From: Eledone cirrhosa
Lineage: Eukaryota
Assembly (NCBI GenBank): GCA_964016885.1
Contig: OZ024741.1
Span: 94,116,001 to 94,180,000 of the forward strand
Length of the DNA: 64,000 nucleotides
Direction: 5' to 3'
Under the pieces are notes generated by a model. The model did not search any database and was not told where the DNA came from. It was given only the letters and a program-made list of their open reading frames with translations. The stretch's first letter is position 1, and every line of letters begins with the position of its first letter. Below, piece by piece: positions 37,530 through 47,225 of this stretch. A program made the translations under genes and the position numbers.

Positions 37530-37854
37530 CAATATATTAATAAATGGAAACTATATTTATAAAACGATAATTATTTTATTATATATATTTCAAGGACAAC
37601 CAAGGCATTCTTGGTGCGCTTTCATCAGATAAAATACAAGATTTGTTTTATAATTGACATAACCGTGGAAAAAACAACCTTGACCGTGAACTTTCAACCG
37701 TCAAGGTTGTTTTTTCCACGGTTATGTCAATATTTATAAAACAAATCTTGTATTTTATCTGATGAAAGCGCACCAAGGGTGCCTTGGTTGTCCTTGAAAT
37801 ATATATAAAATAATTATGGTTTTATAAATATAGTTTCCATTTATTAATATATTG
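37530..37854. repeat. ~160-bp-arm palindrome: inverted pseudo-LTR pair carrying hammerheads
   Basis: Arms ~37530-37690 and ~37693-37854 are near-perfect reverse complements. Confidence 0.85.
37572..37636 (-). ncRNA. Type I hammerhead ribozyme (intact core)
   Basis: TATTTTAT-CTGATGA-AAG..ACCAAG/CTTGGT..CTT-GAA-A tatata T-A^ATAAAATA. The plus-strand mirror copy (37751-37812) lacks 3 nt at stem I. Confidence 0.8.
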
Positions 37855-37999
37855 AATATTTACTCCATAACTGTTGAATGCTTTATGTCAGTTATAAACT
37901 TTTAAGCTTGTTGGAATCCCAACAAATTAAATATAACATATATATATATATATATATATATATATATATATATATATATATATATATATATATATATAT

Positions 38000-40270
38000 A
38001 GTGAACATTGGAACGGGAACGAAAACAGAGAGGCAGTACAAACAAAGGTTTATTAGTTTTACGCTCTTGAGAGTTCCTCAGGAGAAAAGTGGGTGGGAAG
38101 AGAGTTCCAAAGGTGCGTGGGGGAGTGGGGGAGAGACATTTAGAAAAAGGGGGGTGGGGAAAGGGACGAAAAACGGTGGAAGGGGTACAAATAAAAATAA
38201 AAATAAACATAAAGATAAACAAGTGGTAGAAGGGTGTGGGGCCTGTAGGAGTGATGGTGGGTGGAGTAGGGAGAGGGAGGTGGGGTGTCCGAGCGGGGAG
38301 GGCTGAAGGTGGTGTTTGTGTATGTGTGTAGGTGTACGTGTGTGTGTATGTGAATATGAGAGTTGGGGGAAGAACGAGGTTCAATGTTCAGGAGAAGGTG
38401 TGTGTGTGGGGTGGCGTGTAGGTCGGTGTGTACGTGCATGTGGATGGGGAGGGGTCAGAAGGGAGGTGGAGGGGTGGGGAGGATTACGAAGGCTGAGTGT
38501 GTATATGTGGGGGGCACGCACGTGTGTGTTGGTGTTTTTACGTGGTGTAGGTGACGTGGTTCGAAAAAGAATTGTGAGTGTATGTCCGTGAGTAAGTTCC
38601 TAAGGTAGTTCCGTAGAGGGTGCGAAGAGTTGCCGGATATTTTTCATGTTATGGAATGGATAGCTGGAACGATGCCCGGTGTTGTGTAATCCGTTGGTTG
38701 TGGTGGTCGGAAGTGGGGAGATGTGGGGTGCGCGCGCAGCAGGAAGGGGTCAGAGGGTCAAGGCAGGATGAAGGCATAGCAGTAGAGGAGAATGACAGGT
38801 GGAGAAAGTCAGTGTGGTGAGGACTGTGTGTCTGTGTGTGCGGTGAACAGGGGAGAGGATGGGTAGATGTGAAAGGTGGAGTGGGGAGGGGTCATGGGGG
38901 GATGGGGGGTGTGTTAGTAGAGGTGTTAGTGGGATGTGTGTGTGTGTGAGAAGAGGTGTGGGTGGAGCGGGGAGAGGGAGAGAGGAGGTGTGGGGGACGG
39001 TGGAGGGAGTGTAGTGTAATGGTGTGTGTGTGCGTGTTTGGATGAGTGTGTGCGTGGCAAAGGGGGTGATAGTGGGTGTTAGTATACTGGTGGAGGGGAA
39101 AGGGTTGAATGCGGGTGTGTTAGTGGGGGTTAGTGGTGGTTGGGTGTGTAGAGTGGGTGGTGTATGTAGGTGTGGGTGGGTGTGTGTGGGAAGGTGTGTG
39201 TTCGTGTGCGTGGGGTCGGGGGATGTTAGTGGTATTAGTTGTGTGGTGGTTGGAGTGGATGTGTGGGTGAGGGTTATTGGTGGTAGTAGGGTGTGTGGAT
39301 AGTGTGAGTGCGTGTATAATGTACAGGTGGATGTGTACATGATAGGGGAAGGGGTGGGGATGTTAATATTGTTAGTTGGGGGGGGGTTAGTATTGTTAGT
39401 TGTGGGGTGGGCCAAGGGGGTGGGCGGTGAAAAGGAGGAGTATGTTAGTGGTGTTAGTGGGGGATATGTGTGTGCATGAGACAGGGTGGTCGAAGGCTAA
39501 AGGAATAGGGTGGGGAGTTCAGGCCGGGAGGAGTGTGGGTCTGTAGGATGAAGATGGTGCATTGTTCGACCTTGAGACGGGTGGCGGGTGTTCCGTGGCA
39601 TTGGAGTAGGCCACAGACTGTGAGGTGGTGGGTGGAATGTCTAGGGGAGCCAAAGTGGCGGGCGATGGGGGAACTCCCGCCGAGATGAATATCCCGGAGG
39701 TGTTCAGTGAAACGGTCCACCAGGCGACGTCCAGTCTGTCCGATGTAGGTTGGAGGAGGTGCAGCGGAAGGCGTGCCGGACAGAGAGATAGTGGCCGTTG
39801 GGACGCTGGAAGGTGGTGGTGTTGATGATGTGGGGGCAGGAGTGGCAACGAGGCCTGGAGCAGAGAAGGAAACCGGGGGGAAAGAAGAGCGTGGGTTGGG
39901 GGTAGGGAGCTGCGGACGAAGAGGGTGCGGAGATTGCGTGCGCGTTTGAAGGATGGGGAGGGGTGGGCATGGGAAGATATGGGAGGTGGAGGGGTCGGAA
40001 GAGGTAGAGGATGGTGCGGTGGAGGGGTAGGGTGGAGGGGTGGTAGGTGATGGGGAAGGGGAGACGGTGGGTGGGTGTGCGGTGGCGTTGGGTGAGGGTG
40101 GTGGAGCGGTGGACAGCATGGGCGCGAGTGAGGGCGGTGTGGACGAGGGGGGGGGGGGGGGGGGGGGGTAACCACTGCGGATGAAATGGCTGACTAGGGA
40201 AAGGGCCTGGGACTCAAAGTCAGCATCTCGGCTACAGAGGCGGCGGATCCGGAGGAGTTGGGAGTAGGGA
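38000..40270 (-). mobile_element. 5'-truncated Penelope-like element with GIY-YIG endonuclease and long C/A-rich 3' region
   Basis: PYSQLLRIRRLCSRDADF..HFIRSGY (40170-40270) and YIGQTGRRLVDRFTEHLRDI..PIARHF..RLKVEQ..PPGLN; inserted in (TA)n. Confidence 0.85.
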
Positions 40271-44249: not shown

Positions 44250-46056
44250 GTCTTACATATTTAAAATATCTTCCTTGCTCACATTGTTCAGTACTAAGCC
44301 TTATACTTGAGATTTATGGACATACAATCAAGGAGTTGGCCCTGGGTATCACCAAACCTCTGCATGCTAATGACACTGGGGATTGCATAACAAGAGACTC
44401 AGAAAAGAAATAATCATTTAGGTTAAGAATTGTAAAGGTCTCAAATCTGGATTTTATTTTTGCGAAAAACACCCGAGGATGGTTTGCTCGCGACATTTCA
44501 TTTTCTTTGGCGTCTTATTCATGGGATGCAAAAACCATTGAAGTCGTTAAGTCTTTTGATATGTTGATCATATCATCTTCCGGTGACGTCGGTGGCTAGA
44601 AAAAAAGAAACATTCTGGGGGCATTTGTTAACATTGTTAAATTCTTTGAAGAACTACTTGCTTGACAGAGGAAGTGGGGTTCACTCATGCTTCTCTACAA
44701 ATATTCTTCATGATAGTTTTTATTTCTAACATGGGCATAAGGTCAAAACTTTGCTGGAGAAGTGGTTAGTCGATTGGTACTTCATTTTATCGACTCCTTA
44801 AGGAAGAAAGATACAATCCATACCGTTGAAATTTGAACGCCGAACGCATTTAGCCGATATAAATAAGGCAAGGCAATTTGTTCGATGCTCTAACAATTCT
44901 TCCAATGATAATTTTATTTTTTAAGGTAGACACATTCTTAATTTTTATCTATTTATGTGGTAGAGTGGAAATGACTGTCATATAAATAATGTAGTTGAGT
45001 TCATAAGACTCTATCCTTCTCTTAAAAAGCATTGTGGCATTGTATGATAAATCAATATTAATATAGCGCTTAACAATCATTAGACCAATTTGGTATGCTC
45101 AAATACTTATATCATATATATCATCATCATCATCATCACCGTTTTGCGTATTTCTTCCACGCTAGCATGGGTTAGAAGGGTTGTCCTGTTGTGGGCAGTG
45201 CCCAGTCGGCTGACCATGTCTTACTCATACGGGAAGTGATTCTGGCTTGACTTCTACAGCTGGATGCCCTTCCTAACACCAACCTCATTTACAGTGAGTG
45301 ACGGGTGCATTTTTTGCCGTGGTACCTACACGTCCACTTTGCAGTGGAATGATAGGAATCCCAGTCCTATCATCTCATTTCTACAGCTGAGTAAACTGGA
45401 GCAATGTGAAATAAAGTGCCTTGCTCAAGGAAACAACACATCACCCAGTCTGAGAATTGAACTCACAACCTTTCGATTGCAAGACCAATGCTCTAACCAC
45501 TAAGCCATGTGCCTTCACATGGTGCCTAAATATATATATATATATATATATATATATATATATATATACACACACACACACATATATATATATATGCATA
45601 TATATATATACAACCAACATATACTCAAAATCTCTCTCTCTCTCTCTCTCTCTCTCTCTCTCTCTCTCTATATATATATATATATATATATATATATATA
45701 TATATATATATAGAGAGAGAGAGAGAGATTTTGAGTATATGTTGGTTGTATACCAACACCACAGTATGCAGATTGGAGCACTCGACAATATAAAATGTAT
45801 ATATATATGATATATATATATAATATATATATATATATAATATATTATATATATATATATATGATATATATATATATAATATATATATATATATATATAA
45901 CATATATATAACATATATATATGTATATATATATTACATACATATATATATATATTAAATATATATATATATATTACATATATATATATATTACATATAT
46001 ATATATATATTACACACACACTCACTATATATATATATATATATATATATATATAT

Positions 46057-47225
46057 ATGGAGAAAAAATTTACGAAATGGAAATGCGGGTATATAGAATT
46101 TATTAGGTAACAATTGTTTCTATAGTGTATGAGTTACCTATACCTCGCTATTTGAATAATACACAAATATGTTCAAAAGGTCTACCGGTGTACAATAAAT
46201 TCCGGGACCAACAAATGGTATTACGTCGGATGTACCGCAACTTCTTTCAAGGCTCGCCTATACCAACATCGATCTTCGATCAGGCACGAGAAAATGCGTT
46301 CCCTAACAACCCTCGCCGATAAAGCCTGGCAGCTTCGAAGGAACAATCAAGCGTTCTCCCTTGATTGGCAAATTATTGCAGCTGCGCCTGCATATCAGCA
46401 AAATCATCGATTCTGCAAGTTATGCAATTTAGAGATATACTGCATTTTAACGTCGGTAAACAAACTTTTGAACAGCAAAATTGAACGTTCTCTATACTGT
46501 AACCATCGTTTGAAAACGACTTTTTCTTTTTTTAAATGCATATAATGTTACCTTTTTACACCAACGTTTGCAAATTTCTGTCTTATATGTTTATACACTA
46601 GATATGGCTTTCTATAATAATAGTACTAAACACTGTTTTTCTGGACCCCTTTAGAAATAACCTGCTACTATAATAGCCCTAATAACTTGTCTGTGACATT
46701 GTACCACTTTGAACCCTCTAACTAAATTTTGTCCGAACAACACCACTAGAAGTATCTACTTCCCAGCCAACCTTAGCACGCCTCATTAAGCTAACTGCTG
46801 CCAAAACATTCTCTCTTCACAATCTCTACTAGTCTGACAGTCTTAAACCCTAAGACTCCCTCCACCTTACTCACTTCCCTCTTCCCCTTCTCTTCCTACC
46901 TCCTTCTTTATCTTTTATCTAGTGTATAAAATATTTTCATATCATTCTAATACAAAGGTCTGATGACATGGTGTGTTGGCTTACAGTGTACTTTCGGTTT
47001 TTGATAATATTTGTGTATTATTCAAATAGCGAGGTATAGGTAACTCATACACTATAGAAACAATTGTTACCTAATAAATTCTATATACCCGCATTTCCAT
47101 TTCGTAAATTTTTTCTCCATATTTTCTCCGGATTTTAAAACACACTTTATTATACGTTGAGCAATCTCTGACGTCAGTTGACTCCATCCAATGCAACTAC
47201 TTAGTAACATTGGAATACAAATTAT
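46057..47225 (+). mobile_element. 5'-truncated Penelope-like element (GIY-YIG C-terminus) with inverted pLTR
   Basis: LADKAWQLRRNNQAFSLDWQII...FCKLCNLE...LLNSKIE...CNH. 46057-46170 is the reverse complement of 47007-47122; (TA)n flanks. Confidence 0.8.
46956..47072 (+). ncRNA. Hammerhead ribozyme with ~90-nt extended stem II
   Basis: AGGT-CTGATGA-cATGGTGTG...TACACTATa-GAA-A caattg T-T^ACCT; palindromic stem III ACAATTGT. Confidence 0.6.

Follow-up and report, generated by a model that had tools for sequence, protein, structure and literature searches.

The stretch of DNA analyzed here (64,000 nucleotides from Eledone cirrhosa, hereafter the window) carries three hammerhead motifs with intact cores, which we call families A, B, and C, as well as a damaged second copy of A:

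37572 to 37636, minus strand: family A type I hammerhead, with a helix I of 8 bp, a helix II hairpin of 30 nt, and helix III ATATATAT
37751 to 37815, plus strand: second family A hammerhead, a direct copy that lacks 3 nt of the family sequence immediately past helix III and has a damaged helix I
40334 to 40404, minus strand: family B hammerhead in an inverted pLTR copy, with a helix I of 8 bp, a helix II of 36 nt, and helix III ATGCGCAT
46956 to 47072, plus strand: family C hammerhead, with a helix I of 4 bp, a rod-like helix II of 90 nt, and helix III ACAATTGT

As the initial annotation had reported, the type I core (CUGAUGA plus GAAA) is exact in A, B, and C, the stem II inserts are long (30, 36, and 90 nt), and the three helix III sequences are each self-complementary and all different. 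The U16.1-H17 sites are AUA, AUA, and GUU, with cleavage predicted after positions 37580, 40342, and 47068, respectively. Three helices surround each core, the ends of the motif lie in helix I, and helix III would comprise 2 bp in a monomer and 8 bp in a dimer. The helix II hairpins had z scores of -2.5 (A), -3.1 (B), and -5.5 (C). Neither the canonical G10.1-C11.1 pair nor a contact between loops 1 and 2 was found in A, B, or C: position 10.1:11.1 is A-U in A and B and a C.A mismatch at the foot of the rod in C, and the loop contact is missing because the long helix II shifts loop 2 away. These absences exclude the label "canonical," not the label "PLE-type" (for Penelope-like element), and non-canonical bases at 10.1:11.1 are also present in published Hydra and axolotl motifs. 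Whole-monomer MFE folding did not yield the hammerhead fold, as expected because helix III is weak. An inverted-repeat artefact as the source of the 90-nt insert of C was ruled out because the insert also occurs in other copies and, in full elements, in each of the two pLTRs. The notion that the long insert is a separate structured module was rejected, given that in C it folds as a single rod; a branched fold is predicted for one other family. First-look searches of the genome gave 1,366 candidates for the A hammerhead and 1,107 for C, and 42 of the 44 reported matches to B were 100% identical across 131 nt.

The three motifs lie in the remains of Penelope-like elements of the Hydra clade, the parts of which that could be delimited are as follows:

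37522 to 37937: whole family A insertion, comprising part of an inverted pLTR (approximately 37522 to 37685) and a direct pLTR (approximately 37686 to 37937), and matching loci L094 and L095
40296 to 40518: whole family B insertion, comprising part of an inverted pLTR (40296 to 40467) and the final 54 nt of a direct copy, flanked by (TA)n tracts
46055 to 46178, minus strand: inverted partial pLTR of family C, in which the hammerhead is represented by its 3' half alone
46180 to 46545, plus strand: 3' end of the family C ORF, encoding a GIY-YIG endonuclease in which CxxC and CxH are present (PF01541 match at E 0.0012, short of the gathering score)

The A insertion is short, has lost its ORF, and stops at a (TA)n tract (37938 to 38000); its minus-strand hammerhead sits in the inverted 5' pLTR copy. 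C belongs to a 5'-truncated element that reaches 47230 and (TA)n. A lookup of sequencing runs containing 46180 to 47225 listed four, all from one study and none of them RNA. Intact relatives were found elsewhere in the genome: for A, an ORF of 745 aa (L353:2436-4670) between hammerheads 3,815 nt apart; for B, the full element L091, which matches the window insertion and has an 821-aa ORF (identical at three loci) and pLTR hammerheads 3,910 nt apart; and for C, the parent L093, with a 760-aa ORF. The pLTR hammerheads flank an RT-GIY-YIG ORF in L091 and L092 (B), L093 (C), and L353 (A group), and A, B, and C each lie in a pLTR, 130-165 nt ahead of the (TA)n-anchored 3' end. The intact RT-EN relatives of the three are 41-47% identical to one another, and A and B have the helix I sequence TTTTAT/ATAAAA in common; the three hammerheads, which had been called unrelated, therefore belong to related Hydra PLE lineages. 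A 217-aa EN region gave 69,225 first-look candidates in the genome. Being truncated and lacking a nearby partner of their own family on the same strand, the window copies of A, B, and C are probably fossils.

Assignment to the Hydra clade rests on motifs and on a by-eye comparison with published proteins, because Pfam, searched with three intact ORFs and four fragments from the window, gave no RT domain and only a weak GIY-YIG match, on a window fragment. Craig et al. (2021, PMC8557442, section 11) give RWK, DKT in place of DKG, a CxCX5C linker, a GIY-YIG at the C terminus, and CxxC and CxH close to the end as Hydra diagnostics. The intact ORFs contain RW[KRT], DKT, CxC-x5-C-P, YRDD, CxxC, and CxH: RWK occurs in C, RWT in B, and RWR in the A type, DKT and the CxCX5C linker occur in all three, and CxxC was found in B, the A type, and the window copy of C and is absent from the L093 copy. 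Insertion into (TA)n, a further mark of the clade, was likewise observed. The RT tree comprised six proteins, all from this genome. A Naiad parent was rejected on domain order, the EN being C-terminal here and N-terminal in Naiads, and on the presence of hammerheads, of which Naiads have no canonical form.

Further hammerheads populate the rest of the window:

30972 to 32710: family D repeat, a retrozyme-like 468-bp tandem repeat of 2.8 copies plus an inverted copy
31269 to 31313, 31737 to 31781 (core CTGATAA), 32205 to 32249 (minus strand), and 32441 to 32485 (plus strand): family D hammerheads, all with helix III ACTAGT
33090 to 33132, plus strand: family E hammerhead, with ACTAGT as in D and with helices I and II that differ from those of D
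35939 to 35977, plus strand: hammerhead of a further family, with helix III AGTACT, missed by the initial annotation
47346 to 47396, plus strand: hammerhead whose 16-nt helix III is an ordinary hairpin, not a palindrome
54718 to 54752, plus strand: minimal hammerhead with helix III AATT and core CCGAAGA (CTGAAGA in relatives)
59213 to 59306, minus strand: U3-A8 core-variant hammerhead (TTGAAAA), with helix I ACCCC/GGGGT, a long helix II, and a hairpin helix III
62905 to 62945, plus strand: decayed hammerhead-like remnant with TTGATGA and helix I lost
63565 to 63615, minus strand: hammerhead with core CAGAAGA, also found in the relatives displayed, and a hairpin helix III

The ACTAGT motifs noted earlier at 31-33 kb were recovered (31269, 31737, 32205, 32441, and 33090), and their occurrence in both D and E contradicts, within the window itself, the claim that each family has its own palindrome. 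An Rfam scan listed the four D motifs as HH9 (E 3e-6, below gathering); A, B, and C were absent from its 129 matches up to E 5. Like retrozymes, families D and E both consist of tandem units that lack an ORF and each contain a type I hammerhead; elsewhere E forms repeats of about 430-440 nt (for example, at L345), and a search for its autonomous parent returned tandem repeats only. An abundance of hammerheads had been correctly perceived, the earlier estimate of a dozen motifs from roughly eight families in 33 kb being low: by our own tally, 31-64 kb contains 15 near-complete motifs of 11 families, three of which have an ordinary hairpin as helix III. Three motifs had been dismissed as degenerate. 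The one placed at 62885 (its core is at 62910) is indeed decayed, that at 59213 represents a family-wide variant with at least 1,963 copies, and that at 63565 proved to have a hairpin helix III.

How far these matches exceed chance was measured with 982 local dinucleotide shuffles. The window contains six palindromic matches with an exact core and eight with one core mismatch, as compared with shuffle means of 0.001 and 0.017 and a maximum of 1, and when no palindrome was demanded, six of seven exact-core matches were palindromic all the same. The very high genomic density stated in the initial annotation was confirmed; we estimate it at approximately 118 motifs per Mb (1-13 per Mb in controls), or about 0.3 million by extrapolation, including some 19,000 motifs with a helix II of 71-100 nt. 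A descriptor that insists on pairing at the foot of helix II misses C, whereas a relaxed version finds it, and our family counts leave out singletons (35 clusters). The density and the number of motifs with a 71-100 nt helix II are modest novelties.

Among motifs with an 8-nt helix III in a 1-Mb sample, in which copies are not independent events, pair 4:5 was Watson-Crick or G.U in 42 of 42, with all four Watson-Crick types represented, and pair 3:6 in 40 of 42. The center was palindromic in 28 of 30 long-insert loci where the search pattern left it free (expected, 1 in 16); 14 of 47 six-nucleotide motifs, all of one family, had GA or AA in place of the central Watson-Crick pair. The inner pairs change by compensatory steps along a tree: in one family, with helix I unchanged, ACAATTGT gave way to ACGATCGT (a clade with support of 100/100) and then, in one copy, to ACGGCCGT. 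Because such pairs are impossible within one strand, their covariation supports dimers. Nearest-neighbor predictions agree, the forced homodimer fold being more stable than two monomer MFE folds for all six window motifs examined. By its title and the way it is cited, an earlier study is said to show cleavage in dimer form for PLE hammerheads whose stem III is short and palindromic. PLE hammerheads have also been reported to be poor cleavers, even in dimer form. The dimer model and the palindromic helix III of PLE hammerheads are already in print, in PMC4209133 and a review (PMC6765202).

We consider it probable (roughly 0.8) that A, B, and C are type I hammerheads in the pLTRs of three related Hydra PLEs and that the palindrome is kept for the pairing of two copies in order to cut, with no code unique to a family. 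The two pLTR hammerheads of a tandem transcript would fold as a double hammerhead, with helix III and both helices I pairing between the copies, and cleavage would free unit-length RNA for reverse transcription. The palindrome could then drift by compensatory steps, probably through G.U intermediates, self-complementarity being the only demand; drift of this kind would make incompatibility between families a by-product.

The initial annotation had proposed a family-specific dimerization code. Covariation at 3:6 and 4:5 upholds the dimerization; the code fails as stated, for palindromes map many-to-one onto families, and clustering by stem III revealed sharing and a switch within a family rather than one over-dispersed palindrome per family. 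A related possibility, which we regard as unlikely, is that the palindrome, or helices I and III jointly, is a selected family address against cross-family dimers, such as poisoning by RNA from abundant dead copies or from non-autonomous retrozymes. Such an address would fit several observations: when representatives of the families or subfamilies were compared in 171 pairs, just three pairs, all within the A group, proved compatible throughout helix III as well as in both helices I; nearest-neighbor energies predicted that heterodimers, in all six pairs tested, would fall 12-28 kcal/mol short of the mean homodimer stability; A and B differ in helix III alone, their predicted heterodimer reaching -16.2 kcal/mol as compared with a homodimer mean of -28.8 kcal/mol; and subfamilies switch palindromes. 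The A-B difference and the distinct helix III centers of the long-insert lineages C, F, and G (proteins 67-78% identical) are indeed a pattern that a code would also give. Helix III on its own, however, is shared, being fully pairable in 19 of the 171 pairs. The concentration of ACAATTGT in five of 11 long-insert families is the reverse of over-dispersion; ATATATAT, ACTAGT, and ACGATTGT also occur in more than one family, and with clustering at 70%, four palindromes cover nine of 24 families. (Likewise, ACTTTAAGT is common to five published Hydra families of one genome.) A-group families with diverged helices II and with proteins 59-84% identical retain compatible helices I and III. Finally, cis pairing of tandem pLTRs requires no address, and divergence alone predicts incompatibility: dimers are family-specific because helix I, too, pairs between copies and helices I and III have diverged, so that no selection for a code is needed.

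Slightly less probable still, each motif may cut as a monomer in which helix III has 2 bp and a tetraloop, or the motifs may be inactive signals of a structural or protein-binding type; the palindrome would then have arisen for a different reason. Most invertebrate retrozyme hammerheads with 2 bp and a tetraloop cleave efficiently as monomers, according to PMC7229834, C and most long-insert families have a non-canonical pair at the foot of helix II, and Naiads thrive without hammerheads; cleavage as monomers leaves the compensatory changes at 3:6 and 4:5 unexplained, however, and young families keep intact cores. Chance matches in AT-rich, (TA)n-rich DNA might be suspected from the resemblance of ATATATAT to the local microsatellite and from the absence of A, B, and C from the Rfam matches, yet a chance origin is refuted by the shuffles, by the density controls, and by the fixed position of the motifs in PLE pLTRs. 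A more ambitious reading strikes us as improbable: that the genome has among the densest hammerhead loads known (about one per 9 kb, spread over dozens of PLE families that include young, intact ones), that helices I and III form a selected two-part address whose switches from ACAATTGT to ACGATCGT to ACGGCCGT let subfamilies escape cross-pairing with, or cutting by, RNA from abundant relatives and retrozymes, and that, in one Hydra subclade, the helix II rods of 75-100 nt are an added platform with a function of their own.

The kind of hammerhead found here is already known. What the natural covariation of pairs impossible in one strand adds is evidence, at the genome level, for the selection of PLE hammerheads as dimers, their function being called unclear in PMC8557442. 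The young, intact Hydra elements with an identical 821-aa ORF at three loci are suited to testing whether PLE transposition needs cleavage. Motifs with a long helix II, absent from the Rfam scan, may escape short-stem descriptors, and hammerhead counts in such genomes may therefore be large underestimates.

Within the literature collection searched, there was no paper on hammerheads in cephalopod genomes, only PMC8557442 was relevant to octopus Penelope hammerheads, and no work on a helix III code appeared among the matches listed. The Hydra PLEs of Craig et al. (2021, PMC8557442), which include an octopus member (Hydra-1_Obim), resemble the present elements in their C-terminal GIY-YIG, RWK, DKT, CxCX5C, and (TA)n target, in their partial tandem and inverted pLTRs with a hammerhead near the 3' end, and in a self-complementary helix III and an often unpaired foot of helix II. 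They differ in having a loop II of 10 nt or less (helix II inserts of 30-100 nt here), a helix III that is mostly odd-length (perfect even 8-nt palindromes predominate here), and units generally shorter than 3 kb (3.0-3.9 kb here). The hammerheads that metazoan PLEs carry, both minimal ones and those with a small palindromic helix III (Cervera and de la Pena 2014, PMC4209133), are similar in their palindromic helix III plus loop 3 with a dimer model, in the presence of many consensus families in one genome, in a larger helix II and a U3-A8 core variant, and in opposite-strand pairs 100-700 bp apart; helix II there is 7-8 bp, as compared with up to approximately 35 bp here, and the reported counts are about 2,000-9,000 minimal motifs per genome, as compared with our extrapolation, made with another descriptor, of approximately 0.3 million. 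Non-LTR retrozymes (PMC7229834; bioRxiv 10.64898/2026.07.22.740005), which have been proposed to derive from PLEs, share with D (468 bp) and E (about 435 bp) a tandem-repeat organization that lacks an ORF and includes a type I hammerhead. According to the same two sources, the axolotl motifs perform better as dimers and number 126,247 in about 28 Gb, or roughly 4-5 per Mb, as compared with about 110 per Mb here.

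A descriptor scan of the window recovered three hammerheads with long stem II inserts, at exactly the positions that the initial annotation had assigned to them.

Hammerheads A, B, and C in the window, as located by the descriptor scan
37572-37636, (-) strand: A hammerhead, helix III ATATATAT, insert of 30 nt
40334-40404, (-) strand: B hammerhead, helix III ATGCGCAT, insert of 36 nt
46956-47072, (+) strand: C hammerhead, helix III ACAATTGT, insert of 90 nt

The inserts, for which 30-90 nt had been claimed, form extended hairpins of helix II (z of -2.5, -3.1, and -5.5 for A, B, and C, respectively). 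The scan also detected five ACTAGT motifs at 31-33 kb. Palindromic matches in the window numbered six with an exact core and eight with one mismatch, whereas 982 local dinucleotide shuffles averaged 0.001 and 0.017, respectively, a contrast that bears out the expected excess over a shuffled control; when the palindrome requirement was dropped, six of seven exact-core matches were still palindromic. Motifs at 35939, 37751, 47346, and 54718 were added by a wider scan. The tally for 31-64 kb is 15 near-complete motifs in 11 families, and hence the estimate of about a dozen motifs from roughly 8 families was right as to their abundance but too low in both figures. In three of the 11 families (47346, 59213, and 63565), helix III is an ordinary hairpin. 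An Rfam scan of the window listed only four hammerhead motifs, all from family D (a 468-bp tandem repeat at 31-32 kb) and all below gathering. The original observation was, in short, largely right. The motif at 59213-59306 (-) belongs to a family with a U3-A8 core, a long helix II, and a hairpin helix III; among the first 100 of its 1,963 matches the core was TTGANAA in 79, CTGANAA in 20, TTGAAGA in one, and the canonical CTGANGA in none.

The three hammerheads had been described as unrelated, but the elements that carry them, which we assign from their sequence motifs to Hydra-clade Penelope-like elements (PLEs), indicate otherwise. First-look candidates in the genome numbered 1,366 for A, 426 for B, and 1,107 for C, and 42 of 44 B matches among those listed were 100% identical. 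Same-strand hammerhead pairs 3.0-3.9 kb apart enclose single open reading frames (ORFs) of 821 aa for B (identical at loci L091, L092, and L096), 760 aa for C, and 745 aa in a member of the A group; a Pfam search of the ORF proteins gave no match to a reverse transcriptase (RT) domain. The A-, B-, and C-type proteins exhibit 41-47% mutual identity, and A and B, which have helix I in common, group together with a support of 100/100 in a tree of six proteins, all from this genome. The motifs are therefore related. In the window, A and B are represented by very short insertions, whose hammerheads lie in the inverted 5' copy of the pseudo-LTR (pLTR); the C hammerhead lies in the 3' pLTR of an element that is truncated and retains its endonuclease end.

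In A, B, and C elements, the spacing between the cleavage site and the (TA)n that follows has two modes, about 43-53 nt and about 132-164 nt (loci L001-L127; window positions 37522, 40296, and 46055). Where elements were examined, including those of the window, members of the short class are inverted 5' copies ending at an internal TA-like word, and the bimodality may be a clue to the priming of PLE inversions. The stretch 38001-40270 (-) is the 3' part of another PLE. It has a long 3' region and, at 39454-40317, the end of a GIY-YIG-like ORF, for which Pfam gave no match. Relatives (L338-L343) carry a minimal hammerhead with helix III ACGT, which the window copy has lost to a deletion near 38070. 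What we take, from its motifs DKS, KDHK, and MDVVSLYP, to be a broken PLE-type RT remnant at 34130-35880 (+) contains a long Asn-rich low-complexity stretch, has no Pfam match, and is cut at 35880 by an insertion of the AGTACT family.

Elsewhere in the window, two exon-like frames at 899-1513 and 2761-3459 (-) encode von Willebrand factor A domains (PF00092, E 4e-40 and 8e-43) and are part of a host gene. Nested LINEs of at least two kinds by ORF reading (APE-RT ORFs with an upstream ORF1-like frame, and RT with a C-terminal REL-like end) occupy 3500-26000, 53400-54700, and 60050-61250. One abundant SINE-like repeat has copies at 26080-26290, 37401-37521, 42860-42990, 50600-50780, 55576-55744, and 61380-61840, and tRNA-like Rfam matches lie at 2482-2550 and 45446-45509. 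Long near-perfect hairpins or fold-backs with sub-threshold Rfam miRNA matches (37011-37139, 43984-44052, 44040-44250, and 45600-45760) are probably inverted junctions of short insertions.

To estimate hammerhead density, we took 100 stretches of 10 kb at even spacing from 21 large contigs and applied a descriptor that did not require a palindrome. It gave 118 matches (bootstrap range 85-154) in 46 of the 100 stretches; the number per shuffle, over 150 shuffles, was 1-13. For this genome of 3.0 Gb the extrapolation is roughly 0.25-0.45 million motifs, a figure inflated by tandem arrays, and most of these motifs are probably fossils. Genome-wide pattern counts agree with this density (159,432 versus 8,698 and 151,031 versus 9,337 for reversed controls, in overlapping sets; 20,465 versus 1,016 for inserts of 71-100 nt), and the very high density proposed earlier is thereby upheld. 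These counts leave out U3-A8 cores, one family of which alone has 1,963 matches. With nine exact cores in 64 kb, the window is ordinary within the genome. Counts obtained with different descriptors are given as about 9,000 for Xenopus (PMC4209133) and 126,247 for axolotl (bioRxiv 10.64898/2026.07.22.740005). ACGCGT hammerheads recur once per unit in tandem arrays with a period of about 311 bp, of which at least 14 units were seen, on both strands (L165, L236; G000:C1:1239857-1244284).

By helix III, perfect even palindromes made up 61 of the 118 sample matches; 15 more were even with G.U and 19 were even but for one mismatch, while 6 were odd and 17 of other kinds. Within 8-nt helices III of the sample, pairs 3:6 and 4:5, which cannot form inside a single strand, were formed in 40/42 and 42/42 cases, and the centre was palindromic in 28 of 30 long-insert loci for which the pattern left it unconstrained. 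One family, with 2,316 matches, switches palindrome: a tree of 32 of its copies, computed with helix III left out, contains ACAATTGT copies, a clade (support 100/100) in which helix III is ACGATCGT, and a single nested copy with ACGGCCGT, helix I being essentially constant across all three. A forced double-hammerhead fold was predicted to be more stable than two monomer MFE folds for all six window motifs tried. The preserved inner pairs agree with the claim that the palindrome serves dimerisation, a reading of PLE hammerheads already in the literature (PMC4209133; review PMC6765202). What speaks against a strict palindrome rule is that 14 of 47 six-nt motifs in the sample have a GA or AA centre. 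In the abundant AGGACT/AGAACT family (random sample L158-L257), the centre of a dimer would consist of tandem mismatches, either G.A or A.A. In nearly all long helix II rods (L288-L317; window 46967 and 47056), the first and the last base, next to the core, are both unpaired in the fold (C.A, U.U, A.A, and others).

The further proposal that each family has its own palindrome, acting as a family-specific dimerisation code, is not supported. In favor of a code, helix III is the sole difference between A and B, and lineage C and two further long-insert lineages (F and G) have a separate centre each. Against a code, one palindrome is concentrated across many families: ACAATTGT is common to 5 of 11 long-insert families (our own grouping). 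When all loci examined were clustered at 70% and singletons were excluded, ATATATAT, ACAATTGT, ACTAGT, and ACGATTGT jointly accounted for 9 of the 24 families with several copies. Similarly, ACTTTAAGT is described as common to five Hydra families of one published genome (PMC8557442). Helix III was fully pairable in 19 of 171 pairs among 19 family or subfamily representatives, and families of the A group are compatible despite their divergence. Judging from the topology, the two copies of a double hammerhead would share their helices I, the 5' strand from one pairing with the 3' strand from the other, and hence helix I would also set the partner. Both helices matched fully in only three of these 171 pairs, each of them within the A group, and heterodimers were predicted to be 12-28 kcal/mol weaker. 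Dimer specificity is thus explained by divergence of the helices.

As the most likely mechanism we propose the following, with a probability of about 0.8: the pLTR hammerheads of a tandem transcript form a double hammerhead and excise a unit RNA. Two pLTR hammerheads would fold together, and their cleavage would release a unit whose first 130-165 nt are those behind the upstream site, a distance measured in the elements. RT-EN would then insert copies into (TA)n; most of them would be truncated, and many would have an inverted pLTR, which would account for the scattered hammerhead remnants. On this model, the RNAs would be expressed, cleaved, and circularised; among sequencing runs listed for one family C stretch (46180-47225), none was of RNA.

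What is added here to a known kind is modest and consists of the motif density, the class of hammerheads with a long helix II, and the helix III covariation. The A, B, and C insertions of the window have the same architecture as published PLEs. Families D and E (the latter that of the 33090 motif), as tandem repeats without an ORF, are like retrozymes, as are the arrays of about 311 bp with ACGCGT.
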